Shown here one piece after another: positions 657 through 45,757 of a DNA stretch of 64,000 nucleotides (its first letter is position 1; every line of letters starts with the position of its first letter). Below the pieces are notes generated by a model, which saw only the letters and a list, made by a program, of their open reading frames with translations, had not been told where the DNA came from and ran no database searches. The position numbers and the translations under genes were made by a program. This stretch comes from Kiritimatiellia bacterium (lineage in GTDB: Bacteria > Verrucomicrobiota > Kiritimatiellia > RFP12 > UBA1067): assembly GCA_045537795.1 (NCBI GenBank), contig JAZSQE010000051.1:8313-72312 (forward strand), written 5' to 3'.

Positions 657-1082
657 ATGATGAAGCGTACGAGCCTTATTCTCGTGCCTTTCGTGCTATG
701 CGCGATTGGCGTGTTGTCGTTTTTTGTCGCGGGTTGCCGCGATGAGGAAAAGCCCGCGAAGCCAGTCGCGGACCCGCCGTCGGTGTATATGAAGGATCCC
801 GTTTTCAGAAACGCGCTCGATGAACAACGCGCGAAATTGAAGGAACTTCTGGCGAAGCGCGCTCCCGTCATTGAGAAGATGCAGCGGATGGTCAAGGCCG
901 TGAGAGAAAAACTTGAAACCGATGACGACAAAAAAGTCATCGAAGAACTTAAGAAGAATCCCGAGTGGGAGAAACTTCACGCCGAAGCGATCGAGATGAA
1001 CAATCTGATAGAGGCTCTGCGAAAAGAGACGACGAAGATCGTCGGCAAGCGCATCGCCCCCAAGAAACCGGTTTCCAAATGA
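657..1082 (+). CDS. Small lipoprotein with a charged coiled-coil-like body (141 aa)
   Basis: N-terminus MMKRTSLILVPFVLCAIGVLSFFVAGC has a lipobox-like VAGC. The rest is K/E-rich helical sequence. Its TGA stop (1080-1082) overlaps an in-frame ATG of the giant ORF (1079-1081). No strong SD precedes 657. Confidence 0.6.
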   Translation: MMKRTSLILVPFVLCAIGVLSFFVAGCRDEEKPAKPVADPPSVYMKDPVFRNALDEQRAKLKELLAKRAPVIEKMQRMVKAVREKLETDDDKKVIEELKKNPEWEKLHAEAIEMNNLIEALRKETTKIVGKRIAPKKPVSK

Positions 1083-1093
1083 GGAGCAGAAAT

Positions 1094-20721: not shown

Positions 20722-20776
20722 TGTTTGAATGTTTGCAAACATTCCAACATTCTGACATTCAAACATTCTAACATTA
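20719..20776. repeat. Octanucleotide array in the ackA-pta spacer: 2 inverted units then 5 forward units, forming a palindrome
   Basis: taatgttt gaatgttt g|c aaacattc caacattc tgacattc aaacattc taacatta. The core gaatgtttgcaaacattc (20727-20744) is a perfect palindrome. Confidence 0.9.
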
Positions 20777-20781
20777 TCCCT

Positions 20782-21819
20782 ATGAACGCGATTAAAAATA
20801 TAATTGAGAGAGCTTCGAAGTTGAACGGAAGCATTGTTCTTCCGGAGGGGCAGGATGCAAGAGTTGTTACAGCCGCGTGTGCTCTCGTTGACCGCAAGAT
20901 TTGTACACCTATCGTTCTGGGTACACCCGACGAGATAGCCGCCGCTGAAGTGAAGGCCGGCCTTTCACTTGCCGAGCGCGCGATCAAGGTTATCGATTAC
21001 ACAAAAGGTAATGATGAGCTTGAGAACGCCTATCTTGAAGCGTGGAACGCGAAGGAGTCGAAAAAGCCTGCCGAGAAGCAGAAGATAATCGACCTTGCGG
21101 CGGCGCAGCATACGCTCCGCACCAAGCGCATTTATTTCGGCGGCATGATGGTGAAACTCGGCAAGGTGAACGGCCTTGTCGCCGGCTCCATCGCGTCGAC
21201 GGGCGATATGCTTCGCGCGGCGTTTCACACGCTTGGCACTCAAAGCGGCGTCAAGACGGCTTCTTCCTGCTTTATCATGGACCTTAAGGAGCCTACTGCC
21301 TCGGGCGACAGCGTTCTTGCTTTCGGCGACTGCGCCGTAATCCCCGATCCTACCGCCGAGCAGCTCGTCGACATCGGTCTTGCCACGGCCGAGACATATC
21401 GCGATCTTACCGGCAATGAGCCGCGTGTCGCGTATCTCTCGTTTTCGACGAAAGGCTCTGCCGCAGGTCCGCTCGTCGAGAAGGTGCAGAAGGCCGTTGA
21501 GCTCGCCAAGCCGCGCTTTGCCGAAAAGGGCATCAAGATGGACGGCGAACTTCAGTTCGACGCGGCGATCGTTCCTTCAGTCGGAGCTCTCAAGAATCCG
21601 GAAGGCGAAGTGAAGGGCGATGCGAACGTATTCATTTTCCCCGATCTTCAGGCCGGCAATATCGGCTACAAAATCGCCCAGCGTCTCGGCGGCGCTGACG
21701 CTATCGGTCCGAACCTCCAGGGGCTCGCCAAGGCGATGAACGATCTCTCCCGCGGCTGCAGCGCTGAAGATATCGTCGGAACCGCGTGCGTAACGCTGTT
21801 GCAGAGCCAGGGGAAGTAG
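20782..21819 (+). CDS. pta: Phosphate acetyltransferase (short PTA_PTB-only form, 345 aa)
   Basis: MNAIKNIIERASKLNGSIVLPEGQDARVV... and ...IFPDLQAGNIGYKIAQRLGGADAIGP... are typical Pta motifs. The tracked ORF start at 20725 would translate the octamer array, so the ATG at 20782 downstream of the array is preferred. Confidence 0.85.
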   Translation: MNAIKNIIERASKLNGSIVLPEGQDARVVTAACALVDRKICTPIVLGTPDEIAAAEVKAGLSLAERAIKVIDYTKGNDELENAYLEAWNAKESKKPAEKQKIIDLAAAQHTLRTKRIYFGGMMVKLGKVNGLVAGSIASTGDMLRAAFHTLGTQSGVKTASSCFIMDLKEPTASGDSVLAFGDCAVIPDPTAEQLVDIGLATAETYRDLTGNEPRVAYLSFSTKGSAAGPLVEKVQKAVELAKPRFAEKGIKMDGELQFDAAIVPSVGALKNPEGEVKGDANVFIFPDLQAGNIGYKIAQRLGGADAIGPNLQGLAKAMNDLSRGCSAEDIVGTACVTLLQSQGK

Positions 21820-23714: not shown

Positions 23715-25322
23715 ATGGCAACGCGATTTCTAACTCTCAACATCGGCGCTTCCGGCGTATCGCTCGCCGAATACGAATCGGGCGGGAAAGGGCATCTTAC
23801 CCTCGTCAACTACGGCATCGCGCCGCTCGACGCGCCGCTCGATTCAGGGGCGGTCGAAACGATTCTCACGCCCGCTCTTCTTGGCATCGTGCGCGAAAAG
23901 GGCATCAAGCCCGGCAAGGTCGCGATATCGGTGTCGGGGCAGATGGTGTTCCCCAAATTCGCGGCGATTCCTCTTGCGGGCGGGGCGGAGAAGTTCGAGC
24001 AGATGATCCGCTACGAGATCGAGCAGAACTTCCCCTTCCCCATAGACGAGATGGTCTGCGACAGTCAGGTGCTCGGAGATACCGAGAACGGCGACAAGTC
24101 GGTGATGATCGTCGCCGCGAAGGTCGATCAAATAGAAGAAATCACTTCGGCAGTCAAACGCGCGGGATTCGAACCGGAGCTCGTCGATGCCGCTCCCATC
24201 GCTCTCGTCAACGCGATACGCAACAACGGAGAAGGAGCCGATGACTGCATCGTCGCGCTTGACATCGGCGCGAAGACGACGTCGCTCGTAATCGTCGAGG
24301 GCGACAAGATATACAGCCGCTCGATTCCCGTCGCGGGCGCCACTCTCACGAAGGAAATCGCGCAGGCGCTCGGCTGCACGCTTGAGGAGGCGGAAGGCTT
24401 CAAGCTCGAGCACGGCTACGTCTCCGTCGGCGGCGTCACCGAAGACGAGGATGAAGCGATCGACAGAATGTCGAAAGTCTGCCGCGCCGTGATGACGAGG
24501 CTCAACGCCGAGATTTCGCGCTCCATCAATTTCTACCGCTCGCAGCAGAACGGCGGTACCCCCGTAAAACTTTATCTCACGGGCGGCAGCGCGCTTCTCC
24601 CCGAGGTCGATACTTTCTTCGCCGAATCGCTCGGTATCGCCGTCGAATTTTTCAATCCGTTCGAGCAGGTCGGACTCTCGAGAAAGATCGACGAGGAATC
24701 TCTCGGCGTTGATGCCGCTCTTCTGGCCTCTACCGTGGGCGTCGCTCTCAACATGACGCAGGCCGCGCGTTTCTCGATAAATCTCCTTCCGCCTTCGATA
24801 ACCGAAGAGCGCGCCGAGAAGGCGAAGATTCCGTTCGTGGCGCTGGGCGGAGCCGCCTTCGTCGCCGCGCTTGTTGTCGTGTGGCTCGGCGTCAACCGCG
24901 AAATAGCGGTTTTCGAGTCGAGGCTCGAGACGGTGCGGGCCGAGAGTTCAAGGCTGCAGTCGCTTGAAAAGAAGGTCAAGGCCGAAGAGACGAAGCTTGA
25001 CGCCGAAAACGGCGAGGCGGAAAAACTGCGCGATTTCGTTTTGAGGCGCGTCGCGGCGGTTCAGAGAATGAACGCGATACGCGAGTCGATTTCGCGCATC
25101 GGCGGCGCGTGGATCGAAAAGTGGGAGAACGGCAAGATGACCGTGCGTGCATGGCGTGATCGCGTGAAAACCGATGGCGGCAAGACTCTTGCGGAAACCG
25201 TCGTCGAGCAACTCAAAACAAAGGCCGTAGTCGATGCCTCGGGCATAAAAATTTCGGATATGTCCACGATCGGCAAGGACTCGCAGGTCGAACAGTTCAC
25301 GGTGGAGGTGAAGTTCAAATGA
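23715..25322 (+). CDS. pilM: PilM-like actin-fold ATPase fused to a PilN-like TM/coiled-coil segment
   Basis: The N-terminal region of about 350 aa has the PilM/FtsA-like pattern (LNIGASGVSLAEY..., ALDIGAKTTSLVIV, YLTGGSALLPEV). It is followed by INLLPPSITEERAEKAKIPFVALGGAAFVAALVVVWLGV, a PilN-type INLLP motif plus TM helix, and then a coiled coil. Confidence 0.75.
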   Translation: MATRFLTLNIGASGVSLAEYESGGKGHLTLVNYGIAPLDAPLDSGAVETILTPALLGIVREKGIKPGKVAISVSGQMVFPKFAAIPLAGGAEKFEQMIRYEIEQNFPFPIDEMVCDSQVLGDTENGDKSVMIVAAKVDQIEEITSAVKRAGFEPELVDAAPIALVNAIRNNGEGADDCIVALDIGAKTTSLVIVEGDKIYSRSIPVAGATLTKEIAQALGCTLEEAEGFKLEHGYVSVGGVTEDEDEAIDRMSKVCRAVMTRLNAEISRSINFYRSQQNGGTPVKLYLTGGSALLPEVDTFFAESLGIAVEFFNPFEQVGLSRKIDEESLGVDAALLASTVGVALNMTQAARFSINLLPPSITEERAEKAKIPFVALGGAAFVAALVVVWLGVNREIAVFESRLETVRAESSRLQSLEKKVKAEETKLDAENGEAEKLRDFVLRRVAAVQRMNAIRESISRIGGAWIEKWENGKMTVRAWRDRVKTDGGKTLAETVVEQLKTKAVVDASGIKISDMSTIGKDSQVEQFTVEVKFK

Positions 25323-26359
25323 GCAGGACGAAAATGATATTGGCGGCTATGGGAGGGATTTCCCTGCTCGGGGTTCTCGCCATGGCGTATCTCGTCTGGA
25401 CGGCCGTCCAGCGCAAGGGTGAGCTTGACGATGAACTTTCGGGCGCCGTCGCGACGGTCGAGAGTCTTTCGCGGGCGAAGGTGTACCCGAGCAAAGCGAG
25501 CATCCTCGCCGTCGCTTCGAATGTCACCAGAGTCGCCGAATGGAAGGATGAAGTGTTCCGTCTCGTTTCCGCCGGAGACCGCGTCTACGAAAAGACGACG
25601 GCCCCCGCGTTCAAGAACTTTATGGTGAGCGAGGCGAAGCGTCTCGCCGCGCTTCCGGGAGAGGCCGACGGCAAGATCGCCAAAGCGGCTTTTACCTTTG
25701 GTCCGTTCAAGGATTATATTTTCGAGGGCAAGATGCCTTCGGAGCAGTCGCTCGGCGATCTGCAGCGCAAATGGGATGACGTCGTTTTCATCATTGAGAC
25801 TCTCGGCGGCGCGGGGATATCCGAGATAACGGATATTCAGGCGAAGGCGGTAGAAATGCCGAAAGAGGAAGAGACCGGCAAAAAGCGCAATGCCCGCAAG
25901 AGGCGCATGAAGGCGAAGAAAGCCGAAGATGCCGATGCGAAGAAGCTCCCCGTCGTCAACGCCTGGACGGTCGCGTTCGAGACGCGTCCTGCGGGGTATG
26001 TCAAAACGCTTAACGCGTTCGCGTTGAGCGAGCGTTTCGCGGTCGTCGAAGACGTTACCGTAACACGAAAGGCAGATGCCGTCGTCGCTGCGCTCGGTGG
26101 AGAAGAGAAGAAGGAGGAGAACGTGCGTCAGAGCGGCCGTCGCCGCCGCCGCGCAGGTTCGCTCGCCGAGCCGAAGGATGGCGACGATGCCGCAAGGCTC
26201 AAAGACGGGGTCGTCACCGACCCGTCTCTTGATGAGCCGCTCAAGGTCTTTATGACCGTCAAGGTTTATGATTTCAGGACGCTTGAGGCTGAGGAGAAAG
26301 AGATTGCGGACGATGGCGCCGCAGGCAAGGATTCCAAAAAGAAAGGGGCGTCAAAATGA
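25319..26359 (+). CDS. Membrane-anchored protein resembling Amuc_1100 in architecture (PilO-position protein)
   Basis: ATGA overlap with pilM. It has an N-terminal TM helix (ILAAMGGISLLGVLAMAYLVW), a helical region, a charged K/R/E-rich linker and a terminal beta segment (KVFMTVKVYDF). The order of segments matches my recollection of Amuc_1100. Sequence similarity is weak. Confidence 0.45.
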   Translation: MSRTKMILAAMGGISLLGVLAMAYLVWTAVQRKGELDDELSGAVATVESLSRAKVYPSKASILAVASNVTRVAEWKDEVFRLVSAGDRVYEKTTAPAFKNFMVSEAKRLAALPGEADGKIAKAAFTFGPFKDYIFEGKMPSEQSLGDLQRKWDDVVFIIETLGGAGISEITDIQAKAVEMPKEEETGKKRNARKRRMKAKKAEDADAKKLPVVNAWTVAFETRPAGYVKTLNAFALSERFAVVEDVTVTRKADAVVAALGGEEKKEENVRQSGRRRRRAGSLAEPKDGDDAARLKDGVVTDPSLDEPLKVFMTVKVYDFRTLEAEEKEIADDGAAGKDSKKKGASK

Positions 26360-27492
26360 TATCGAGGTCGGCAAAATCGAACTTTTTCGTCGCGCATTAC
26401 GAATGGCTGGTTTCGGGCGTCGGCATCCTTGTGTTTGCGTTGGCCGCAGTATATTTCATCAGTGTTTCGGGTGAGGATCCTTCTGATGCCGCCCGGCGTG
26501 AAGAGGCGCGTCTCAAGCGTCTCGATCCCGGTTCGACCGGAGTGCAGAAAACCGATATGGCGCTCTTCGATGCGGCCAAACGCGTTGCAAAGGCACCGGT
26601 AGTTCTCGCCGAGTTCGATGACAAAACGCAGAACTTTCTCGCGAGCGAGCGCCGCGTACTTTGTAAAAAATGCAAGAAAGCGATTTATATAGAGTTCAAA
26701 AAGGGTGAAGACGGCGAGGATCTGCCGCCCAAATGCCCGTTCTGCGGAGAAGATCAGGGACTCGCGAAGAAGGTCGTGCTCGACGGCGACGGCGACGGAC
26801 TGCCCGACAAATGGGAGAAAAGCGTAGGGCTCGACCCCAAGAATCCCGCCGACGCCGATGCCGACATGGACGGCGATGATTTCACGAACAAGGAGGAATT
26901 TCTTGCCGGCACTAAGATCGACGACAAGTCGAGCCATCCGGATTATCTTGATTGCGTCAAGATCGTTCTTCCGCTCAAGGAGACATATCTGCCGTTCGTT
27001 TTCCGGAAGGCGAACCAGATACCCGGCGGCTGGAGATGCGAGTTCTTCGACCCGAAGAAGATGGACGATTACGGACGCAAGGGTCTGACGGTAACCGCCA
27101 GAATCGGAGAGGAAATCCCGGGGACGGAATATGTCGTCGAGAAGTACGTCCGAAAGGAGACTAGAGTGAAAATCAAAGGAGCCGAAGGATTGACCCGGCC
27201 CGTTGATGTGTCAGAAGTGTACGTCAAGCGCAAGAGCGACGCGAAGATCGTGAAGCTCGTTATCGACACCGCTAAAATTCCCAGGCCTGTAGCTGTTGAT
27301 ATCCAGGCTGTTCTGAAGTATGAAAGAGGTGTGAAATCCAAGGACTTCACAGTGGTGCCCGGAGACGAGATCGCGCTCGGTCTCGAGAAATGGAAAATCA
27401 GTTCCGTCACTCCAGACGGCAAAGGTGCGAAGATTGTCTTCGAGAACGTTCTAACCGGCAAGAAGCGGACGTTGTCTGCGCTTGAACAATGA
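26356..27492 (+). CDS. Membrane-anchored protein with a CxxC...CxxC zinc ribbon and TSP3-like DGDGDGLPD motifs (Amuc_1099 position)
   Basis: ATGA overlap with the upstream gene. TM helix WLVSGVGILVFALAAVYFI; zinc ribbon CKKCKK...CPFCGED; TSP3-like LDGDGDGLPDKWEKSVGLDPKNPADADADMDGDDFTNKEEF. Confidence 0.6.
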   Translation: MISRSAKSNFFVAHYEWLVSGVGILVFALAAVYFISVSGEDPSDAARREEARLKRLDPGSTGVQKTDMALFDAAKRVAKAPVVLAEFDDKTQNFLASERRVLCKKCKKAIYIEFKKGEDGEDLPPKCPFCGEDQGLAKKVVLDGDGDGLPDKWEKSVGLDPKNPADADADMDGDDFTNKEEFLAGTKIDDKSSHPDYLDCVKIVLPLKETYLPFVFRKANQIPGGWRCEFFDPKKMDDYGRKGLTVTARIGEEIPGTEYVVEKYVRKETRVKIKGAEGLTRPVDVSEVYVKRKSDAKIVKLVIDTAKIPRPVAVDIQAVLKYERGVKSKDFTVVPGDEIALGLEKWKISSVTPDGKGAKIVFENVLTGKKRTLSALEQ

Positions 27493-27541
27493 CAAAATAA
27501 ATGGTAAAATGTTATTGAAAATGAGCATCAGAAGGGTCGAT

Positions 27542-30500
27542 ATGACAAACATCAAGAACTTGGTCGTCCTTGGCGCGACTATTGCCACAGTCTTTTTCTG
27601 CAATTATGTCTCCGCGCAAGATGACCTTGATAGTCTTCTCAAGGAACTTGACGGCGGCGACAAAAAGGTTGAAGCGAAAAAGCCGGAGGCGAAAGCCGCC
27701 GAGAAGCCTGTCGCCGAGAAGCCTGCCGAGGAGAAGGTCGCGGAGCCTGTCGCCGAGAAGCCTGCGGAGGAAAAACCTGCTGAGGCCGAAAAGAAATCTG
27801 AGGCAGTAGCCGAGAAACCGGCCGAAGAGAAACCTGCCGAAGTCGTGGCGGAAAAGCCTGCCGAAGAAAAGCCTGCTGAAGAAAAGGTCGTTGTCAAGGC
27901 CGATGCGAAAGTATCGGCAAGTCCCGACGCTGAAATTCTTTCGAACGCGGTCGCCACCGAGCAGTTGCGAAGAACCGCTCTTGACGCGCAGGCGCGCCGA
28001 GAAATTCTCGAAGCGAGAAAGTGCATGGAAAACGATGAGTATACCGAGGCTGTGCGTCATTACGGTCTTGCTCAGAAGTTGCTCAACGATCGCGCTTCGT
28101 CGAAGAATCTCCGCAAGGAATGCGATCAGGGTATTGCCGAAGGCCTTTACCGTGCCGCCATGCAGGAGGACGATCTCGGTCGTCGCGAGAAGGCGCTCGA
28201 GCTCATGGAGAAGGCTCTTGATATGCGTCATCCGAAGGCGAGGCGGGTTCTCGAGCGGTGGGTGAACGAGCGCGAGAGCGTCATTGAAGATGTTGCCGTC
28301 GACGATATCAAACATCGCAAGAGCGAAGAGAACTACAAGAAAAAACATGAATTCATAAGAAGGCATCTCAAGCGCAGCCGCGATCTGCTCGCCCAGAACG
28401 AATTCGATGAAGCGCTCGAGGAGTGCGAAATCGTTTTGCTGAAAGACAAATACAATCAAGAGGCCATCCGTATCCGCAAGGCGATTCAGAAGAAGCGCGA
28501 TATCGTTCTCAAGCAGGAGCGTAAGGCGAGCCGCGACGGGATGATTGCCGATGTGGACGCCGCATGGAGGCCGGTGTATGCGCCCAACGCCGCCCAGCTT
28601 GACGAGGCGGAGGCGGAGACCGTCAAGAAGAAAACCGGTGACGATACGGAACTTACCGAGGAGCAGATGATCGAGGCCCGCATGAAGGCGATGCGCCTGC
28701 CTACGATTTCGTTCAAGCCGCCGGCGACTATCATCGACGCTGTGGACTTCTTCCGCGGGGCTTCGAAGGATTATGACCGTCCTGACATCCCGATCGAGAA
28801 GCGCGGCTTCAACTTCGTCCTCAAGACTCCGCAGGGGGCGCTGAAACAGCAGGCCGCCACTGAAGACAGCGGTGACGACTTCGCCGCCGCTGCCGAAGAT
28901 AAGAGCACCGACAAGGGCACGGCGAACGGCCTGCCCCCGATTCCGACGATTACGGCGAGCGATATCACGTTCTACGAAGCGCTTAAACTCGTCTGTGATT
29001 CCGTCGACTACAAGTTCATCGTCCGCGGGCCTGTCGTTATGGTCATGCATAAGGATATGTCGACGGCCGAACTTCTCTCGAGAAAGTATGACGTTCTCGA
29101 CGCGTTTCTCGAGCGTATGACGAGCGCTTCGAGCGACATGAAGGAGATGCGCTCGGCTGGTTTCGGCGGGGGCAACACCCGCGCCAACAATAACGAAGGC
29201 GAAGAAAACCAAGAGAAGGATTGGAAGGCGTTCTTCGAGCAGATGGGCGTCAAGTGGCCTGAGGGTTCTTCGATCATGTACATCAAGACTCTCGGCAAGC
29301 TCTACGTTCGCAACACGCGCGAGAATCTCGCCGAGTTCGAGAAGGTTCTCGAAGAAATGGGTTCGCAGCCGAAGCTCATCGAAATCGAGACGCGCTTCGT
29401 CGAAGTTTCGCAGGAAGATCTCAACTCTCTCGGTTTCGAATGGATTCTGAACAGCGACTATTCGCTGAATCTTGGTAATAAGCTCGGTAAGGCTCTCGGT
29501 GTCAAAGAAGGTTTCTTTCAGGGCGATGTCCAAAATCTCGGAAAGCGCGACCCCACCACGGGCATTTATACGGGTAGCGACAATGTAATCGTCGATCCCA
29601 CGGCTCCCACGGCCGGAGCGGCGTGGCGTCCGGCGGGAAATTATTATAACGGTATGAAGCCTGACGGAAACGACGGTTTCGCCACGATGGCTAACGGTAA
29701 GCGCAACGTCGGTATCAACGCTTTCGGCGGCACGTCCGATATGCAGAACGGCAACCGTTATCTTTCCACGGTCGGCAACCATATCTCTGGAGAGTCTGCG
29801 TCGGTAAATGATCAGTTTATGCGTGTGAACGCGTTCCTCGGGTCGGCTGATCTTTCGATGATTCTTCACATGCTCGCGCAACGCAGCGACACCGACCTTC
29901 TCTCGGCTCCGAAGGTCGTCACGAAGTCCGGCGAGAACGCCGTTATCAAGGTTGTGACAGAGTACATCTATCCGCAGGACTACGATGTTCAACTTCAGTC
30001 GAGTTCGTCTTCGAGCGGCAGCAGCAATTCGGGCGGCAGCCAGTCTGCGATTCTCGCGGTCGTCGAGCCGCAGAACTTCACCATGCGTGAAGTCGGTGTC
30101 ATTCTCGATGTCACGCCTACCTATTCTGAAGCGAACGGCGGCACGATCGATCTTGAGCTCAAGCCGCAGGTCGTCGATGAGCCTACGTGGAAGAACTACG
30201 GCATGAAGATTCCTTTCACAGGCAACAACAGTGCTCTTCAGAGTTTTGAAGGTATCGGGTCCATTTACGAGTTCCTTCCTGGCGTTCTTGCCGCGCTTGG
30301 GGCGACGCTTGATGACGCGACCAGAAACGCCATGGCGATTACCGCTGTCGAGAGTGCCAACAGCGCGGTCGCCAACGCTTCCAAAACGGGAGCCGATTCG
30401 CTTACCTATTACGACGCTCCGATGGAACAGCCGTTCTTCCATGTGCGCTCAATCGACTCTAAGGTTTCGATTACGCCCGGTTCGACGGTCGTGATGGGAG

Positions 30501-30724
30501 GTCTTATCACCGAAGCGCGAAAGGCGATGGATGACAAGGTTCCGTTCCTCGGCGACATTCCTTATATCGGTCGTTTCTTCCGCAGTCATTCCGAATGGAC
30601 CAGCAAGCGCAACCTGCTTATCTTCGTGACGGGTCGTTTGATCACGCCTTCTGGTCGCGAGCTTCGCACCGGCAACCCCGATGTTAACCCCGCCGATGTC
30701 ACGCCTGCTCCGAAGGGGAAGTGA
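27542..30724 (+). CDS. Secretin (GspD/PilQ family) with a long N-terminal low-complexity and TPR-like extension
   Basis: Signal peptide MTNIKNLVVLGATIATVFFCNYVSAQ. C-terminal secretin motifs LSAPKVVTKSGENAVIKV and VPFLGDIPYIGRFFRSHSEWTSKRNLLIFVTGRLI. Alternative starts are 27509 and 27521; the tracked ORF begins at TTG 27482. Confidence 0.85.
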   Translation: MTNIKNLVVLGATIATVFFCNYVSAQDDLDSLLKELDGGDKKVEAKKPEAKAAEKPVAEKPAEEKVAEPVAEKPAEEKPAEAEKKSEAVAEKPAEEKPAEVVAEKPAEEKPAEEKVVVKADAKVSASPDAEILSNAVATEQLRRTALDAQARREILEARKCMENDEYTEAVRHYGLAQKLLNDRASSKNLRKECDQGIAEGLYRAAMQEDDLGRREKALELMEKALDMRHPKARRVLERWVNERESVIEDVAVDDIKHRKSEENYKKKHEFIRRHLKRSRDLLAQNEFDEALEECEIVLLKDKYNQEAIRIRKAIQKKRDIVLKQERKASRDGMIADVDAAWRPVYAPNAAQLDEAEAETVKKKTGDDTELTEEQMIEARMKAMRLPTISFKPPATIIDAVDFFRGASKDYDRPDIPIEKRGFNFVLKTPQGALKQQAATEDSGDDFAAAAEDKSTDKGTANGLPPIPTITASDITFYEALKLVCDSVDYKFIVRGPVVMVMHKDMSTAELLSRKYDVLDAFLERMTSASSDMKEMRSAGFGGGNTRANNNEGEENQEKDWKAFFEQMGVKWPEGSSIMYIKTLGKLYVRNTRENLAEFEKVLEEMGSQPKLIEIETRFVEVSQEDLNSLGFEWILNSDYSLNLGNKLGKALGVKEGFFQGDVQNLGKRDPTTGIYTGSDNVIVDPTAPTAGAAWRPAGNYYNGMKPDGNDGFATMANGKRNVGINAFGGTSDMQNGNRYLSTVGNHISGESASVNDQFMRVNAFLGSADLSMILHMLAQRSDTDLLSAPKVVTKSGENAVIKVVTEYIYPQDYDVQLQSSSSSSGSSNSGGSQSAILAVVEPQNFTMREVGVILDVTPTYSEANGGTIDLELKPQVVDEPTWKNYGMKIPFTGNNSALQSFEGIGSIYEFLPGVLAALGATLDDATRNAMAITAVESANSAVANASKTGADSLTYYDAPMEQPFFHVRSIDSKVSITPGSTVVMGGLITEARKAMDDKVPFLGDIPYIGRFFRSHSEWTSKRNLLIFVTGRLITPSGRELRTGNPDVNPADVTPAPKGK
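27671..27887 (+). repeat. Degenerate tandem repeats encoding (A/V)EKPAEEK low-complexity sequence in the secretin N-terminus
   Basis: Reiterated gccgagaagcctgcc/gaggagaag-like units, translated as ...AEKPVAEKPAEEKVAEPVAEKPAEEKPAEAEKK...AEKPAEEKPAEVVAEKPAEEKPAEEK. Confidence 0.8.
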
Positions 30725-34368: not shown

Positions 34369-35682
34369 ATGGAAATCAATAGAGATAGTTACTTGGAGCG
34401 ACTGGTTCATTTTATGCATAACGGCACGGTAAAGGTCGTTACTGGCGTTCGTCGCTGCGGTAAAAGCTACCTTTTAAGAACACTATTTCATCGTTACCTG
34501 ATTAACAATGGTGTGCCCGAAGATCATATTGTTGAAATTGATCTAGAAGCTGAGGGCAATGAAAGATTTTGGGATCCGCTTGTTTTAGGGGAATATATAA
34601 GGAGTCGGATCAATGGTAATGGGCGTTATTATGTTATCCTTGACGAAATACAGCGTGTACGAAAGACGCTTCCTCTATGGGTAGATTTGTCAAGGATATC
34701 TCCGGAAGAACAGAAAAGCGCTTTTGTTACATTCTATGACGTTTTAAATGGTTTAAACAACAGGAAGAATGTTGATGTCTATGTGACTGGTTCCAACTCC
34801 AAAATGCTCTCAAAAGATGTTATGACGGTATTCAGAGGGCGTTCTACAGAAATTCGTGTCTTCCCGTTGTCATTTTCAGAAGTGTTGTCCGCAAAAGGCG
34901 GAGATAAGAGTGACGTATGGGAAGAATATCTTATGTTCGGCGGAATGCCGCAAGCCGTACTTGAGCCAGATGAAAAGGAGCGGGTCAATATTTTGAAATC
35001 TTTTTTTGAATACGTTTATTTCCGCGATCTCGTTGAGCGTCATTCACTTAAAAATGATATGGTTCTTCGTGAAATCACAGATGTAGCCTGTTCATCTGTG
35101 GGATCTTTAGTGAGTCCGCAGAAAATTGGGGCGACCATTCGTTCAGTTCAAGGACATTCTGCTTCGGCACCAACGGTTAAGAAATATCTGGAATATTTAG
35201 AGGATGCTTTTCTATTTGAGAAGGCATCCCGGTACGATGTGCGCGGAAGAAAATATTTCGATACCCCAGCAAAATATTTCGCTGTTGACGCTGGCCTTCG
35301 GAATGCCCGTCTCAATTTCCGCGAACCTGAACGGACGCATTTGATGGAAAATGTCATATATAACGAGTTGCGAAGAAGAGGATATTCTGTTGATGTAGGA
35401 GTGGTAGATATTCAGTCTACCGTGGATGGCAAGCGTGTATTCAAGCGGCATGAAATTGACTTTGTTGTCAACCTTCCTCTTGGAAAAATGTACATTCAGT
35501 CGGCGTTCAATATTGACGATCCGGTCAGAAAAGCGGCAGAGACGGCGTCGCTGCATAAAACAGGAGACTTCTTCCGCAAGCTGATTGTCACAGATGGAAA
35601 TCGCAAGCTTGTTACAGACGAGGATGGTATCTCATACGTCGGCGTTCTTCAATTCCTGACGAATTGGGATATAATGAATTGA
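34369..35682 (+). CDS. AAA-family ATPase of the AAA_14 / DUF4143 type
   Basis: Walker A TGVRRCGKSYLL, Walker B-like YVILDEIQ and a characteristic C-terminal half. AAGGAGGA SD 5 nt upstream of the start. AT-richer than the flanks. Confidence 0.7.
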   Translation: MEINRDSYLERLVHFMHNGTVKVVTGVRRCGKSYLLRTLFHRYLINNGVPEDHIVEIDLEAEGNERFWDPLVLGEYIRSRINGNGRYYVILDEIQRVRKTLPLWVDLSRISPEEQKSAFVTFYDVLNGLNNRKNVDVYVTGSNSKMLSKDVMTVFRGRSTEIRVFPLSFSEVLSAKGGDKSDVWEEYLMFGGMPQAVLEPDEKERVNILKSFFEYVYFRDLVERHSLKNDMVLREITDVACSSVGSLVSPQKIGATIRSVQGHSASAPTVKKYLEYLEDAFLFEKASRYDVRGRKYFDTPAKYFAVDAGLRNARLNFREPERTHLMENVIYNELRRRGYSVDVGVVDIQSTVDGKRVFKRHEIDFVVNLPLGKMYIQSAFNIDDPVRKAAETASLHKTGDFFRKLIVTDGNRKLVTDEDGISYVGVLQFLTNWDIMN

Positions 35683-40089: not shown

Positions 40090-40977
40090 GTGATCAAGGA
40101 GATTTTTTACATACTCTCGGCAGCGTCGTTCGCGCTCGGCGCGTGCGTCGCTTCTTTTCTTAACGTCGTCATTTACCGCGTTCCGCTCGGCCGGTCGGTC
40201 GTCCTGCCCCGATCGCATTGTCCTTCCTGCGGCAAGACCATCCCCTGGCGGCTTAACATCCCGATACTGAGTTGGCTCCTGCTGCGCGGACGCTGCGCCT
40301 TCTGCAGAACGGCGATTTCGCCGCGCTACATCATAGTCGAAGTCCTCGGCGGCGTTCTTTTTCTCGCGGCGTTTCTCCGCATTTTCGCTCCCGGCGGCAA
40401 TGCCGCGTCGATAGCGGCCGAATCGTCGTTCGGCTTCGCGCTCCCGCTCGTCTATCTTATCGTCACATGGATATGGATATCGCTGATGATCGCCGGGAGT
40501 TTCATTGATTTCGATCATAAACTTCTGCCGGATTTCACCACCGTCGGCGGCATGGTTCTCGGCGTCGTTTTCTGGACGGCGGCTTCTCTCTCGTCGAAGA
40601 CGTACGGCTTCGGCGATTTCGGCAAGTACGCAGCGCTTCTTTATTCCGTGTCGGGGCTGGCGGTCGGCTTCGGCCTGATGTGGCTCGTGAGATTTCTCGG
40701 CTCGATGGCGTTCAAGCGCGAGGCGATGGGGCTCGGCGACGTCTTTCTGATGGGCGCGGTCGGCGCGATGTGCGGACCTGTCGCCGTCATCGTGACGCTG
40801 ATTCTTTCTTCCGTCATCGGGTCCGTGGCGGGGCTGTCGCTTGTCGCGCTTTCGAAGACGAAGATCGGCAGATTCGTCGAAATCCCGTACGGGCCCTACA
40901 TCTGCGCGGGGTGCCTGACGTGGATGTTCTGCGGCCCTGAACTTGTCGCCTGGTATTGCCGCCTTCTCGCGCCGTAA
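40090..40977 (+). CDS. pilD: Prepilin peptidase (A24 family, PilD/GspO)
   Basis: GTG start. CPSCGKTIPWRLNIPILSWLLLRGRCAFCRTAISPRYIIVE is the zinc-binding N-terminal domain. The protein is polytopic, with GLGDVFLMGAVG carrying the catalytic Asp. Confidence 0.85.
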   Translation: MIKEIFYILSAASFALGACVASFLNVVIYRVPLGRSVVLPRSHCPSCGKTIPWRLNIPILSWLLLRGRCAFCRTAISPRYIIVEVLGGVLFLAAFLRIFAPGGNAASIAAESSFGFALPLVYLIVTWIWISLMIAGSFIDFDHKLLPDFTTVGGMVLGVVFWTAASLSSKTYGFGDFGKYAALLYSVSGLAVGFGLMWLVRFLGSMAFKREAMGLGDVFLMGAVGAMCGPVAVIVTLILSSVIGSVAGLSLVALSKTKIGRFVEIPYGPYICAGCLTWMFCGPELVAWYCRLLAP

Positions 40978-41048: not shown

Positions 41049-42452
41049 ATGGAATCGTCTATTGCGATAGTCGGCATGAGTTGCCGTTTTGCGGGGGTGG
41101 GGTCGCCTTCCGCGTTCTGGGACTCTATCATGTCCAGAAGCGCGAATCTGGGCGTTCCCGGCCCCGAAGCGGAACTGCCTGTCGGCGAGCGCAGCGTTTT
41201 CAACCGCCCGTATCCCGCGCGCATCGGACAGCTCGGCGATCTCTATTCGTGCGTGCAGGCGATGCAGAACTTTCCGCGCCAGATAAACGCCGGCGAAAAC
41301 CAGGACCTCTACTTCGCGACGCAGCTCGCGTTCGACGCGCTCGCCGACGCGGCGATGAAGCCGCATTCGCGCGAAGCCGTCAACGGCTCCGTGCGTATCG
41401 GTTACGCGCCTCCTTTCAACGCCTCGACGATCAACTGGCTGCAGCACACGTCGTTTCTCGATCAGACGATGGACATTCTCAGGCGTTTCATGCCCAGCGC
41501 CACCGACGCGAACATCGACGCGGTGCGCGTGAAGCTCGCCGAGTCGCTGCCCGCGCCGAACGCGGCCTCGTTTCTTCTCGGCGCGGGCTACCGTTTCGCC
41601 TCGTGGATCGCGCGCGAATGCAACTTCAACGGCCCCGCGACGATTATGGACGCGGGGATGCTCACGGGCGCGACGGTGCTTATGGACGCGAAGAGCGATC
41701 TCGACGAAGGGCGAGTCGACATCGCTCTGGCGGGTTCGCTCACTCCGCCCGTGTCGCGTTCTTATCTCGAAGGTCTGTCGGGAGAAGTCCCTTTTTCCGT
41801 CGGACAGGAGTATCAGCCGTTTTCCGAAGACGCTGCGGGGACGCTGCCGGGCGAAGGAGGCGCGTTTTTCGTTCTGAAGCGCCGCGCCGACGCGCTTCGC
41901 GACCGCGACAGGATATATGCCGTCATCCGCTCGGTAGCCGTCGGGCATAATCCGCCCGGCGATCCGTCGGTGATACTTTCGCGGGCGACGGAAAAGGCGG
42001 GCGTTCCGGTCAGCACGATCGGGCTCATCGAAGCCGACGGCAACGGCGTCAAAGCGGCCGAGTGCCGCGAGATCGGCGCGATACAGAAACTCTGGGGAGA
42101 GCACCGCCCCGGAGGCCCGCTTGTGGGAGTCGGTTCCGTCAAGGGCAATATCGGTCACACGCTCAGAGCTTCGATGGCCGCGGGGGTCGCCAAGGCCGCT
42201 CTCGCCCTGAGCCGGCGCGTTCTGCCGCCGCAGGTCGACGTCACGAAGCCCAACTACATGATTTCGAATCTCGCCTCGAGCGTCTACCTGCTCACGGAGG
42301 CGAGGCCGTGGATATCGGGCGACAGCTCTTCGCCGCGCCGCGCCGTGGTGATGGGTTCCAATTTCGACGCCGTAGACCCCGTGGGCGGCGCCGCGCCCGA
42401 AGGCAGATGCGCCGCCATAGTCCTTGAAGAAGAGCCGGAGGATCGCCAGTGA
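41049..42452 (+). CDS. Beta-ketoacyl synthase-like protein lacking the catalytic Cys and the first catalytic His (KS0)
   Basis: The type I PKS KS pattern IAIVGMSCRFAGVGSPSAFW is present. The active-site stretch reads GPATIMDAGMLTGA where KS enzymes have GPxxxVDTACSSS. EADGNGV replaces EAHGTGT. GSVKGNIGHT is retained. Confidence 0.75.
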   Translation: MESSIAIVGMSCRFAGVGSPSAFWDSIMSRSANLGVPGPEAELPVGERSVFNRPYPARIGQLGDLYSCVQAMQNFPRQINAGENQDLYFATQLAFDALADAAMKPHSREAVNGSVRIGYAPPFNASTINWLQHTSFLDQTMDILRRFMPSATDANIDAVRVKLAESLPAPNAASFLLGAGYRFASWIARECNFNGPATIMDAGMLTGATVLMDAKSDLDEGRVDIALAGSLTPPVSRSYLEGLSGEVPFSVGQEYQPFSEDAAGTLPGEGGAFFVLKRRADALRDRDRIYAVIRSVAVGHNPPGDPSVILSRATEKAGVPVSTIGLIEADGNGVKAAECREIGAIQKLWGEHRPGGPLVGVGSVKGNIGHTLRASMAAGVAKAALALSRRVLPPQVDVTKPNYMISNLASSVYLLTEARPWISGDSSSPRRAVVMGSNFDAVDPVGGAAPEGRCAAIVLEEEPEDRQ

Positions 42453-45400
42453 CGGAGCTTGTCCTCATACGTGCCGAAGACGACGCGGCGCTCGTCAGGA
42501 GCATCAATGAACTGAGCGTTTTTCTTGCGCGCGTGAGCGACGTCAGACTCTGCGACGTCGCGTTCACTCTCGCGCGCGCCACGGGCCCAGCCGCGCTCGC
42601 GATCATCGCCGGCGACGTCTCCGAACTTCGCGCGAGGCTCGATTCCGCGAGGTCGCGGATCGGCTCGGGCAGCGCGCGCCTCAGGGACAAGAGCGGCACG
42701 TACTGGTTTCGCGACAGACTTCTCGGAGAAGGCGGCGGCAGGCTCGCTTTCGTCTTTTCGGGCGTGACCGGTTTTTATCCCGACATGATGCGCGATCTCG
42801 CCATCGCCTATCCGCAGTGCCGCAGCGCCTTCGACGAACTCGAAGAGGCGCTCGCCAAGGAAGGCGGCGAATTCACTCCTTCGTCGTTCGTTTTCCCTCC
42901 CGCGCCGTATTACCGACACGACGCCGACGTTTTCAGTTCCGGCGCCTACGCGCAGGCTCTCGTTTCGACATACGCCGGGTGCGCCGCCCTGTCTCGCCTC
43001 ATGGACAGTCTCGCCGTCAAGCCTGACGGAATCGTCGGTTTCGCCGGCGGCGATCTCGCCGCCATGATGCTCTCTGGCGCGGCGGGCGCCGAGCCTTCGC
43101 GCCCCGACCGGGTGCGCGTCGTGCGAGAGATATACAAGATCGTCGACAAGGCCGTTAACCACGGCGGGCTCCCCGAGGTCGCGATGATCACGGTTCTTCT
43201 GCGCCGCGGCGATGAGATAGACGAAATAGTGAAGACGTTCCCCGCCGACAAGTTCATGCTCGTGGTCGATTTCTCTCCGCGCCAGAAAACGTACGCCGTC
43301 AGGGTCGATTTCGAAGAGACCGTCCTTGCGGCGTTCGCGGCGGCGGGCGTCAGAGTCATGAAACTCGCTCTCGACAGACCTTTCAACACGAAGATGTGCG
43401 AGAAGCTCCTCGTGCCGGTCATCAAGAAGTTCACGTGCGGCTGGATGAAGCACCACCCGACGTGCGATTTCTATTCCTGCGCCACGGGCGAGCGTCTCCC
43501 GAAGAGCGTGCGCGCTTCGCGCGCCGACATGGCGGAGAGCTGGGCGAAGCCCGTCCTTTTCGAGCGGACGATCAGGCGCATGCACGAAGACGGTTACCGC
43601 GTATTTCTCGAGGTGGGGCCGCGCGGCCTTATGACGAGCGCCGTAGAAGACACGCTGAGGGACGAAGAGCACGCGGCGATCGCGCTCAACTCGATCCACC
43701 GCCGCGGCGTCGTGCAGGTGCAGCACGCGATCGCGCAGCTCGCCGCGCTCGGAGCCGCAGTCGACATCGCGCCTCTCTTCGAAGGGCGCAAGGTGAAACT
43801 CCTCGATTTCGCCTCGACGATATCCCTCGAAGAGCGCAAGGACGCCGAGATGAAACTCTCGCGCTCCTTCCCGCGGCTGACGCTCCTCTCGGACGAGGGG
43901 ATGCCCCGCGCGGCCTCTCCCCTCGCCGAAGCGAAAGGGCGCGGCGCGAAGGCGGCGGCGCGCGCCGCGGTTCTCGCCGAGCGCGCCAGACGTCAGCGCC
44001 AGTTCGATTTCGGCGCGATGAACCCGCTCATATCGGATGCCGAGACGATCGACTCGAGCCCCGGCGTGTCCGTCGAGCTCGTTAAGGACTTCCGTCTGTC
44101 GGAGCTGCCGTTCATCGCCGACTACGCGCTCGGCACGAGCCAGCTCAGCTACTCCGACCCCAATCTCAAGGGACTTGTGCTTCTCACTCTGCCCGTGGGT
44201 GCGGAGATAATGGCCGAAGCGGCGCAGCTCGTGATGCCAAACCGCACGTTCACCGCGATAGAAGATCTCGTCTGCCGGCGCACCGTTGCATTCAAGCGCG
44301 CTTCGCTGAAGCTCTTCATACGCGCGGAGCGAGTCGCCGCCGGCAATCCGGGAGAGGCGGCAGTCAAGGTGCAGATACGCGACGACTCGCCGAACGCGGC
44401 GTACACGTGGCCCGTCATGGAGGCGACGGTCGTCTTCGCGGAGAAGCCGCGCGGAGCCGTTCCCGCCGCGGTGGAGCCGCTCTGCAAGCCTCGCATGGTG
44501 CACTGGTCCGGCCGCGATATCTATCCGCAGCGTCTCTGCTACGGCAAGCGCCTCAGGGGCGTTCAGTTCGTAGAGTCGTGGAGCGAGTCCGGCATGGACT
44601 ACGAAGTGGCGGTGCCCGCGCTCGGCGGCAACGTCGCGTTCACGCGCTTTCCGATCTGGGTCGTCAATCCCATACTTCTCGAAATCGTGGCGAGCGGCTT
44701 TCAGCTTTGGCGCAGCCACGAGAAGTTCTCGGGCGCGTTTTCCTTCCCGTTCAGGATGCGTCGGCTCGATTTCGGCGGTTACATCCCCGAAGAAGGCGCG
44801 AAGCTCAAGTGTTATCTGCGCCTTACGGGTGTCACTCCGAAGAGCCACGTCTCCGACATCGACGTTACCGACGGCAACGGCAACGAGCTTATGTCCGTGA
44901 CAGGGTGGGAAGAGCTTACCGAACGCGTTCCCGTCGAATACCGCGAGCTCGTGCTGCAGCCGGCGATGAGTTTTCTCACGGCCGAAGTCGATCGCGAGTT
45001 CCTCGGCTCTCCCGCGACGGACGTCGCCTCGGCGTTCATCACCGACATACCTTACGGGATTTTCGAGCGCAACGAGGAACTTTGGCTCAAGACTCTCTCG
45101 CATGTCATTCTTTCCGCGCAGGAGAGGCGCGAGTTCGCTGCGATGACAGGCTCGACGGCTCGCCGAACCGAGTGGCTCTTCGGGCGTGTCGCCGCCAAGG
45201 AGGCGGTGCGGAGGTTCATGAAGGTCTATCATCAGGCGCGCTGGAGCGACGCCGACATCCAGATATGGCCCGACGATTCCGGCAAGCCGCACGCCCTCGG
45301 CGCATGGGGCGACAGGCTCTCGACGAAACTCGATGTGGCGATCGCCCACACTTCGCAGTTCGTCATCGCCGTCGCGGCCGCCAACGCCCGCGTCGGCGTC

Positions 45401-45757
45401 GACGTCGAGAGCGCCAACCGCGATCTCTCGCAGGAGTTCTCGCTCGGCGTTTTCACTCCCGATGAACTGGAGCTCGCGGCGCACGCGGTCAACGCGGCGC
45501 AGACGCTCATCAGGTTCTGGTGCGCCAAGGAGGCGGTCTCCAAGGCGCTCGGCACGGGTATACGCTATTCCCCGAAGGAGATGGTCATAAGAGACTACCA
45601 GCCTTCGGCGGGGACGATCGCCGTAAGGCTCGAGGGCGCGTGGGTCGAGGCTTTCAAGAATTTCAGAGGCCGCGACATAACGGTCACGGTCGGCATGATG
45701 CGCGAACACGCGCTTGCGTTCTGTTTTCTGCCATCGTCGCTTTTCGACGCGGATTGA
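42449..45757 (+). CDS. 1,102-aa fusion: acyltransferase-like domain (Ser/His dyad lost), PKS dehydratase-like double hotdog (His lost), and a C-terminal Sfp-type 4'-phosphopantetheinyl transferase with intact motifs
   Basis: GTGA overlap with the KS-like stop. AT-like: FVFSGVTGF (versus FPGQGSQ), GFAGGD (versus GHSxGE), RPFNT (versus AFHS). DH-like: LPFIADYALG...LPVGAEIMAEAA (versus LxxHxVxG...LPGA). PPTase: DDSGKPH, VAIAHTSQF, VGVDVE, FWCAKEAVSKALG. No ACP-like GxDS motif was seen. Confidence 0.7.
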   Translation: MTELVLIRAEDDAALVRSINELSVFLARVSDVRLCDVAFTLARATGPAALAIIAGDVSELRARLDSARSRIGSGSARLRDKSGTYWFRDRLLGEGGGRLAFVFSGVTGFYPDMMRDLAIAYPQCRSAFDELEEALAKEGGEFTPSSFVFPPAPYYRHDADVFSSGAYAQALVSTYAGCAALSRLMDSLAVKPDGIVGFAGGDLAAMMLSGAAGAEPSRPDRVRVVREIYKIVDKAVNHGGLPEVAMITVLLRRGDEIDEIVKTFPADKFMLVVDFSPRQKTYAVRVDFEETVLAAFAAAGVRVMKLALDRPFNTKMCEKLLVPVIKKFTCGWMKHHPTCDFYSCATGERLPKSVRASRADMAESWAKPVLFERTIRRMHEDGYRVFLEVGPRGLMTSAVEDTLRDEEHAAIALNSIHRRGVVQVQHAIAQLAALGAAVDIAPLFEGRKVKLLDFASTISLEERKDAEMKLSRSFPRLTLLSDEGMPRAASPLAEAKGRGAKAAARAAVLAERARRQRQFDFGAMNPLISDAETIDSSPGVSVELVKDFRLSELPFIADYALGTSQLSYSDPNLKGLVLLTLPVGAEIMAEAAQLVMPNRTFTAIEDLVCRRTVAFKRASLKLFIRAERVAAGNPGEAAVKVQIRDDSPNAAYTWPVMEATVVFAEKPRGAVPAAVEPLCKPRMVHWSGRDIYPQRLCYGKRLRGVQFVESWSESGMDYEVAVPALGGNVAFTRFPIWVVNPILLEIVASGFQLWRSHEKFSGAFSFPFRMRRLDFGGYIPEEGAKLKCYLRLTGVTPKSHVSDIDVTDGNGNELMSVTGWEELTERVPVEYRELVLQPAMSFLTAEVDREFLGSPATDVASAFITDIPYGIFERNEELWLKTLSHVILSAQERREFAAMTGSTARRTEWLFGRVAAKEAVRRFMKVYHQARWSDADIQIWPDDSGKPHALGAWGDRLSTKLDVAIAHTSQFVIAVAAANARVGVDVESANRDLSQEFSLGVFTPDELELAAHAVNAAQTLIRFWCAKEAVSKALGTGIRYSPKEMVIRDYQPSAGTIAVRLEGAWVEAFKNFRGRDITVTVGMMREHALAFCFLPSSLFDAD

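Follow-up and report, generated by a model that had tools for sequence, protein, structure and literature searches.

Inactivated ketosynthase, acyltransferase and dehydratase domains joined to an intact, predicted active Sfp-type phosphopantetheinyl transferase in Kiritimatiellia

Fusions of phosphopantetheinyl transferases (PPTases) to megasynthases are known from the enediyne polyketide synthases (PKSEs) and from fungal fatty acid synthases (FASs). The enediyne enzymes SgcE, CalE8 and DynE8 are self-phosphopantetheinylating, iterative polyketide synthases (PKSs) with the domain order ketosynthase (KS), acyltransferase (AT), acyl carrier protein (ACP), ketoreductase (KR), dehydratase (DH) and PPTase, and an Sfp-type enzyme serving as the general or sole PPTase of a cell also has precedents, in PcpS and AASDHPPT. 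PKS-type proteins with a PPTase domain at their C-terminus have likewise been documented among pfa-like synthases (PMC3098273; a study of hybrid specialised lipids, JACS Au PMC13291983 / bioRxiv 10.1101/2025.10.24.682833). Here we analysed a 64,000-nucleotide stretch of a Kiritimatiellia bacterium genome (contig JAZSQE010000051.1, positions 8,313 to 72,312; hereafter the window), in which two overlapping genes encode KS, AT and DH domains devoid of their catalytic residues (KS0, AT0 and DH0) together with a C-terminal Sfp-type PPTase whose motifs are complete. With a probability of roughly 0.55, we read the pair as a pseudoenzyme PKS whose remaining catalytic activity resides only in the PPTase, which would act in trans and probably prime the ACP of fatty acid synthesis.

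The pair fills positions 41049-45757, exactly where a preliminary description of the sequence had placed it, with two overlapping open reading frames (ORFs) on the + strand. The first gene, KS0 (41049..42452, ATG start, 467 aa), encodes a KS fold without the Cys-His-His triad, recognised by the N- and C-terminal ketoacyl-synt families of Pfam and by alignments to Protein Data Bank (PDB) entries. The second (42449..45757, + strand, GTG start, 1102 aa) encodes a KS-AT linker, AT0, the double-hotdog DH0 and the PPTase. The start of this gene and the stop of KS0 share a 4-nt GTGA (42449..42452, + strand), an overlap that recurs in the called coordinates of related loci (L001-L003, L044 and L045) and that suggests translational coupling of the two proteins. 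In Pfam, the 1102-aa protein matched a KS-AT linker (weakly), Acyl_transf_1 at residues 179-411, PS-DH at 695-819 (weakly) and ACPS at 981-1072. No ACP (PP-binding) or KR domain was detected by Pfam in either protein and no ACP in the window, in agreement with the preliminary description, which had seen neither. NCBIfam assigned family-level membership to neither protein; for KS0 its best partial model was that of the PfaA subfamily, with 148 bits where the cut-off is 1010. Pfam, NCBIfam, Foldseek similarity to KS-AT-DH modules and the family tree all place the pair with type I, PfaA-like PKSs by fold and descent, while the ACP expected of such a synthase, either as a domain or as a linked gene, was found neither in the proteins nor in the window nor in the annotated flanks of related loci.

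The catalytic Cys of the KS had been read by eye as Met and its first His as Asp, with the second His motif, NIGHT, preserved. Alignment to solved PKS structures with phmmer gave the same columns: Met204 (nt 41658-41660) aligned with the catalytic Cys (imDAGMltg versus vDTACSaS) and Asp330 (nt 42036-42038) with the first catalytic His (EADGNG versus EAHGTG), so that His370 within GNIGHT (nt 42156-42158) is the only residue left of the triad that an active PKS requires. In 121 homologues the Cys column held Met (54), Ile (43), Leu (9), Val (9), Asn (5) or Ala (1), the first-His column held Asp in 120 and Asn in one, and Lys365 and His370 were each present in 121/121. Asp330 (the former His), Lys365 and His370 make up a conserved triad in a dead pocket, fixed in 120-121 of the 121 KS0 proteins while the nucleophile position drifts. 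The more than 120 homologues of KS0 are named 'hypothetical protein' or 'polyketide synthase' [Kiritimatiellae bacterium] at NCBI.

For the second protein, an alignment (MAFFT) and a neighbour-joining tree were built from 138 family representatives plus the window protein (139 sequences). The degenerate proteins formed a single monophyletic clade of 13 representatives, the window protein included. KS partners across this clade are also dead, with M, L, M, V, A and E at the Cys position in six loci; the fused actinobacterial relative L009 has a canonical KS. The KS-AT linker (residues 1-95, 42449..42733, + strand) was recognised by weak Pfam matches to RhiE-like_linker and CurL-like_PKS_C and by NCBIfam PKS models starting at residue 4-5, and it was modelled by AlphaFold2 (AF2) with a predicted local distance difference test score (pLDDT) of ~90. 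AT0 (42734..43798, + strand) was delimited from Acyl_transf_1, PDB alignments, an AF2 model with pLDDT 85-92 and Foldseek matches to PKS AT domains with target-based template modelling scores (TMt) of 0.71-0.78. In HMMER alignments to solved AT domains, GFAGGD fell under GHSQGE (His to Phe198, Ser to Ala199), RPFNT under YASHS/HAFHS (catalytic His to Asn313) and GVTGF under GQGSQ, the very substitutions noticed earlier from the letters, and an Ile stood at the malonyl/carboxylate-binding Arg (equivalent to FabD Arg117). AT0 is hence left with none of the features of an active AT, namely the GHSxG Ser, the catalytic His and the malonyl-binding Arg. The AT Ser column contained Ser in 123/123 active representatives versus 3/13 members of the degenerate clade (Gly, Ala or Ser there), and the AT His was present in 126/126 other representatives versus 6/13.

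AT0 is followed by a basic, Ala/Arg-rich linker (residues 451-530, 43799..44038, + strand), which had a pLDDT <50 and is conserved within the clade, with the invariant residues R498...R514 R515 Q516 Q518 D520 F521 G522 in alignment A1. DH0 (44039..44923, + strand) is a PKS-type double-hotdog DH according to Pfam PS-DH, the strand/helix pattern of the AF2 model and Foldseek matches to KS-AT-DH PKS modules; in the relative P0137, PKS_DH_N spans the first hotdog. ADYALG had been proposed to replace the His motif of the DH, and its Tyr559 does occupy the His column, with His in 126/126 active relatives versus 0/13 in the degenerate clade, which shows Y, F, S, C, E or R instead. A second change had escaped the preliminary description: Glu745 occupies the DH Asp column, where Asp was found in 126/126 active relatives versus 6/13 of the clade. 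Both residues on which an active DH depends, the His of the first hotdog and the Asp of the second, are thus missing from DH0. In the full-length AF2 model the linker and AT regions were good (pLDDT 85-92) and the double hotdog moderate, and the whole resembled the KS-AT-DH modules of CalA3, MAS and PsoA.

The PPTase domain (residues 871-1102 plus the stop codon, 45059..45757, + strand) was identified by Pfam ACPS, NCBIfam pantethn_trn, profile searches, AF2 and Foldseek. Its motifs are complete: GKPH at 945, IAHT at 965, VGVDVE at 982 and FWCAKEAVSKALG at 1023, corresponding to the GKP, (I/V)xHS/T, GxDxE (Mg2+ ligands) and WxxKEAxxK (catalytic Glu and Lys) signatures of Sfp-type enzymes. Nine motif positions (catalytic, metal-binding and flanking) were checked and each was conserved in 13/13 representatives of the degenerate clade; the same positions were less uniform among the 126 other representatives (e.g. 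99/126 in the Glu987 column). From 20 diverse members, a profile covering the last 240 residues was built and searched against solved enzymes. Its first half matched Bacillus subtilis AcpS (3e-15) and its second half other AcpS enzymes, and the profile also matched Sfp (1e-11), the PPT domain of fungal FAS, AASDHPPT and PptT. The PPTase region was poor in the full-length AF2 model, computed from a shallow alignment, and good when the domain alone (residues 862-1102) was rerun with a diverse alignment, which yielded a pLDDT of 93 and a predicted template modelling score (pTM) of 0.90. Best Foldseek matches of this model were AASDHPPT, PptAb, Sfp, PcpS and PptT (TM 0.55-0.67). The domain has the two-lobed, pseudo-dimeric alpha/beta fold of ~230 aa that defines Sfp-type PPTases; both this fold and the 870 aa preceding it in the same protein set it apart from AcpS-type enzymes, which are free-standing, single-lobe trimers of ~120 aa. 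Motifs, modelled fold and invariance within the clade all bear out the earlier claim of an intact Sfp-type PPTase, and from sequence and model we predict the domain to be active.

We considered whether the genes could be a decaying pseudogene or the product of a frameshift or of faulty assembly. Nothing apart from the missing catalytic residues speaks for such an origin. More than 120 full-length homologues (~1100 aa) of the 1102-aa protein were found in a set of 5.8 billion proteins, at 67-93% identity and with the same motif states; one of them, from a Kiritimatiellae metagenome-assembled genome (MAG), bears the name PPTase superfamily protein. As the substitutions are common to all these homologues, they cannot be put down to chance, frameshift or sequencing error. 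Moreover, the ORFs are intact, and many independent assemblies show the same architecture, 4-nt overlap and substituted motifs. A shift in the by-eye alignment, the other error that could have undone the preliminary description, was ruled out too, because HMMER alignment to PDB PKS chains and the 139-sequence MAFFT alignment returned the same columns. Neutral decay was ruled out by the ratios of nonsynonymous to synonymous substitution rates (dN/dS, Nei-Gojobori method) between the window protein and its 93%-identical relative in L044: 0.062 for KS0, 0.031 for AT0, 0.031 for the post-AT linker, 0.053 for DH0 and 0.033 for the PPTase. All domains are under strong purifying selection and the dead ones are as constrained as the PPTase, and values of 0.03-0.06 in every domain indicate that the dead domains are needed. 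An origin by artefact or decay is therefore refuted. In terms of identity, the PPTase was the best-conserved domain (75%, against ~70% for AT0 and DH0, in 37 homologues).

Strong purifying selection in all domains, along with the retention of the second His and the Lys in the KS, could also be expected if KS, AT and DH still catalysed their reactions with non-canonical residues, as an unusual active synthase. We regard this as very improbable. The former nucleophile and catalytic positions are variable and mostly inert (M/I/L/V/N/A in the KS, G/A/S for the AT Ser, Y/F/S/C/E/R for the DH His), there is no ACP domain or linked ACP gene, and the malonyl-binding Arg and GQGSQ have been lost. The non-canonical chemistry entertained in the preliminary description is accordingly disfavoured. 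Its other two options, a pseudoenzyme scaffold and a PKS-derived substrate-recognition module, both remain, and its general picture of a live PPTase borne by a KS0/AT0/DH0 scaffold is upheld by active-site columns without catalytic residues and by a PPTase that is well folded in the model and has invariant motifs.

In a search with HMMER of 1.84 billion cluster representatives, 8422 relatives were retrieved, 767 of them below 1e-30. Relatives at 27-34% identity have 1100-1900 aa and AT-DH-PPT, AT-ACP-DH-PPT, KS-AT-DH-PPT or KS-AT-x-ACP-DH-PPT architectures (PPT, PPTase domain). Their best-scoring model was PfaA, which the AT-DH-PPT protein P0137 matched about as well as it did the generic type I PKS model. 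The 126 representatives outside the degenerate clade are PfaA-like PKSs with a C-terminal PPTase and have canonical AT and DH residues. One active locus, L042, has the gene row KR / KS / AT-DH-PPT (P0292, 1104 aa) / 99-aa ACP-like protein; its KS is canonical (DAACSSS, EAHATG, MIGHC) and the 99-aa protein bears GDLDFQSTD. Judged from these sequences, the ancestral type is a small PfaA-like iterative PKS with a built-in C-terminal PPTase, either fused or split into KR / KS / AT-DH-PPT / ACP, and by analogy with the enediyne PKSEs its PPTase probably primed the synthase's own ACP. The loss of catalytic residues along the degenerate lineage looks graded.

Some further members of the family deserve mention. 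The 99-aa ACP-like protein of L042 (13342-13641, + strand; GDLDFQSTDVVEL) had no Pfam PP-binding match at E <0.001 and may represent a divergent carrier protein family. The anammox locus L010 (Candidatus Brocadia MAG, 4386-12295) combines a KS and two AT-like regions with a PPTase at the C-terminus; it is ~28% identical to the query and is a further uncharacterised member of the PKS family with C-terminal PPTase. A scan of GTDB species with the pattern [AG]KEAx[SAV]KALG, which was too generic, provided at least 6 informative loci (L006-L011) and under-samples the taxonomic spread.

Nine distinct genomic contexts of the degenerate pair were available (the window, L001-L003, L004-L005, L006, L007, L008, L011, L044 and L045). 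Flanks of up to 10 kb were annotated for the window, L001-L005, L044 and L045, as were the genes adjoining the pair in L008 and L011. KS0 was located directly upstream in 8 of the 9 contexts and was the sole conserved neighbour. In the remaining one (L004/L005, 9198-14081, a 71%-identical relative) KS0 is not adjacent; the gene is preceded by dapF and shares its last 11 nt with a radical-SAM gene. The flanking genes were unrelated and mostly housekeeping (hisG, ligA, uvrD, gmk, pheST, panB, dapF), and they were entirely different already at 93% and 86% protein identity (uvrD/RF-1, gmk/hpt, ispF/ligA, pheST, panB). No ACP, KR, enoylreductase, thioesterase, second KS or other PKS gene was present in the annotated flanks, and the unrelated flanks rule out membership in a biosynthetic gene cluster for the window and the related contexts. 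A search for ACP and AcpS in the window and in related loci totalling 295 kb recovered nothing but the PPTase domain; this sample is far too small to speak for genome-wide absence. The organism labels available for the relatives were Kiritimatiellae/Kiritimatiellia or 'Verrucomicrobia' rumen MAGs. The L006 contig (CAVJWR010000005.1), with a pair at 54-56% identity whose AT region matches in pieces only, is filed as a 'Limosilactobacillus gorillae' MAG and is almost certainly mis-binned. In L011, a 43%-identical clade member, panB (7742-8584, + strand; ketopantoate hydroxymethyltransferase of the pantothenate/CoA pathway) lies directly upstream of KS0, in a single instance.

These contexts bear on the target of the PPTase. 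The domain could act solely on a specialised carrier protein whose gene lies elsewhere, in a secondary-lipid, PKS or nonribosomal peptide synthetase system, with a normal AcpS in charge of housekeeping. In the ancestral family the PPTase does sit inside the synthase beside its ACP, and where pfa-like synthases have a PPTase integrated or adjacent, it is associated with the pathway (PMC3098273). We nevertheless hold a specialised target to be unlikely, given that no carrier protein or biosynthetic gene was linked to the pair in nine contexts, that the housekeeping flanks differ even at 86-93% identity, and that accessory pathways are less typically conserved so strongly and broadly than core functions are. 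Variable housekeeping neighbourhoods, broad conservation and the lack of a linked carrier protein together point to a core function, of which the priming of AcpP would be the most plausible.

The reading of the pair as a pseudoenzyme PKS with a PPTase acting in trans can be set out as follows. In the Kiritimatiellia lineage the active sites of KS, AT and DH were lost, the catalytic set of the PPTase stayed unchanged, and no KR or ACP gene lies within the examined flanks of up to 10 kb. A KS0 dimer would bind the linker-AT0 region of the second protein as in a KS-AT didomain, giving a (KS0)2(AT0-DH0-PPT)2 complex whose fixed ratio could be ensured by translational coupling. The PPTase is predicted to use Mg2+ (held by Asp985, Glu987 and Glu1028) together with Lys1032 and His967, and would transfer 4'-phosphopantetheine from CoA to the Ser of a carrier protein. 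This carrier protein would be encoded elsewhere and most likely be AcpP of the fatty acid synthase, making the protein a housekeeping holo-ACP synthase. The dead domains, on which the PPTase would depend, would constitute a frame for folding and oligomerisation and possibly a docking surface for the carrier protein.

Several points weigh against this reading. The basal clade members P0126 and P0130 retain the AT Ser and His, and the statement that all synthase domains are dead holds for the crown group, which includes the window. A complex with KS0 may not be obligatory, given L004/L005 without an adjacent KS0, and any arrangement of the domains would be tentative, the full-length AF2 model being poor in the PPTase and linker regions. 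Both the activity and the target of the PPTase are predictions from sequence and modelling, and a separate AcpS may exist, the domain then serving a specialised carrier protein. Finally, the dead domains are as constrained as the PPTase, Asp330, Lys365 and His370 of KS0 are near-invariant, and G197, G200, G201 and D202 as well as RPFNT are kept in AT0, which hints at a specific role beyond scaffolding. Such a role could even be the primary one if the dead domains were a non-catalytic binder of acyl-ACP, holo-ACP or CoA esters, working as a sensor, a sequestering factor or a regulator of lipid synthesis, with the PPTase in a secondary part. The dN/dS values shared with the PPTase, the KS0 pocket residues retained in 120-121/121 homologues and the AT0 pocket motifs invariant in the crown clade would all fit a binder; we still think it quite unlikely, because conservation is highest in the PPTase, whose catalytic positions alone are invariant across the whole degenerate clade.

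If the trans-acting PPTase reading is carried further, Kiritimatiellia might lack a conventional AcpS altogether, and their sole essential holo-ACP synthase might be this fossil PKS, whose KS0/AT0/DH0 body would have become indispensable to the PPTase as the platform on which it oligomerises or docks the ACP. This is a tentative proposal, which we think somewhat more apt to fail than to hold.

The rest of the window was annotated as well, and scans for Rfam families and tRNAs gave no matches in it. Upstream of the pair, Pfam identified hisS, a YgjP-like protein, hisG and a prepilin peptidase, and downstream a PKD-domain protein, a PIG-L deacetylase and a GH2 glycosidase; the remaining content comprises ackA-pta, a pilus/secretin cluster, gltX and a 6165-aa ORF. 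The prepilin peptidase (A24; 40090-40977, + strand), directly upstream of KS0, is 10 kb away from the secretin genes at 23715-30724 (+ strand), which encode a PilM-like ATPase-fold protein, two ORFs without family match and a 1080-aa secretin with TPR; together these genes look like a type IV pilus or type II secretion-like cluster. The ackA-pta operon (acetate kinase/phosphotransacetylase; 19549-21819, + strand) is consistent with a fermentative lifestyle. The 6165-aa ORF (965-19462, + strand) is uninterrupted and probably encodes a huge surface or adhesin-like protein, in which Pfam recognised only a single Laminin_G_3 (concanavalin-like lectin) domain around residue 2600; sequence composition seems to account for the long ORFs on its opposite strand. 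Between 34001 and 36000 the GC content dips to 0.446, against ~0.55-0.65 elsewhere, coinciding with an AAA_14/DUF4143 ATPase ORF (34369-35682, + strand), and the region may be a foreign insertion.

Inactive single domains (KS0, the chain length factor CLF, and individual AT domains) and fusions of PPTases to megasynthases are already known. We found nothing specific in the literature on a protein combining all-inactive KS, AT and DH with a PPTase, on AT-DH-PPT architectures or on PPTases of Kiritimatiellae, and no description of a synthase in which all chain-building domains are dead and the priming enzyme is alive, kept by strong purifying selection across a bacterial class. The pair would exemplify the passage from a multi-domain enzyme to a pseudoenzyme scaffold, of which intermediates persist in the basal members with AT Ser and His. 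In practical terms, genome mining will label it as a 'polyketide synthase' or a biosynthetic cluster, though a polyketide product is unlikely. If the PPTase were the general one of Kiritimatiellia, it would be relevant to the expression of their carrier-protein-dependent pathways and to their lipid metabolism, and if it were the sole holo-ACP synthase, a class-wide enzyme of primary metabolism would be locked in a pseudoenzyme megasynthase. The dead KS-AT-DH body would also offer a test of PKS domains as pure modules for carrier-protein recognition.

Compared with described systems, the pair resembles first the PfaA-like synthases (of polyunsaturated fatty acids (PUFA) or 'secondary lipids'), of which pfaC-PPT of Pseudoalteromonas sp. 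DS-12, the type M clusters (Renibacterium) and pfaBC-PPT of Aquimarina/Flavobacterium have an integrated PPTase. The PfaA subfamily is the best NCBIfam model for KS0 as well as for the active KS, KR and KS-AT of active relatives. Unlike the window pair, PfaA-like synthases are catalytically intact, contain ACP domains and are found in biosynthetic clusters, whereas here KS, AT and DH are dead, no ACP, KR or enoylreductase is linked, the neighbours are housekeeping genes and the scores fall far below cut-off. The PKSEs, with which the pair had been compared in the preliminary description, are an apt parallel as far as domain order goes (KS, AT, DH and a C-terminal Sfp-type PPTase) and share the ancestral self-priming logic; by sequence, the best scores belong to the PfaA-type (PUFA/secondary-lipid) synthases. 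PKSEs differ in being one polypeptide with ACP, KR and intact active sites, while the window has two genes, no ACP or KR and inactive domains; the likeness rests on domain order and not on direct sequence comparison, and DynE8 was not among the matches listed (60 of 117 PDB rows for KS0), nor among the 28 for the second protein. The split metagenomic PKS of L042 (P0137/P0292) is similar in size (467 + 1104 aa), has the same domain order with the KS directly upstream, and shares ~30% full-length identity, but its KS, AT (GHSSGE, PYHT) and DH His are canonical and KR and ACP genes flank it. To the Sfp-type PPTases P. aeruginosa PcpS and human AASDHPPT the C-terminal domain is related by its two-lobed fold (Foldseek TM 0.58-0.67 to 7BCZ and 2CG5); these are free-standing proteins of ~230-320 aa, whereas the window domain is the C-terminus of a 1102-aa pseudo-PKS coupled to KS0. 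The alpha-subunit of fungal type I FAS likewise has a PPTase in a megasynthase downstream of the KS, and the second lobe matches 2WAS/2WAT (TMt ~0.8), but the fungal domain is a single AcpS-like, trimerising lobe in a fully active synthase. Lastly, KS folds without the catalytic Cys are kept for structural or gatekeeping roles in KS0 of trans-AT PKSs and in KSQ/CLF, and the ACP-less module CalA3 (KS-AT-DH-KR) was the top full-length Foldseek match. Those cases are single dead domains in a working assembly line, whereas here every synthase domain is dead and the priming enzyme is what is left.

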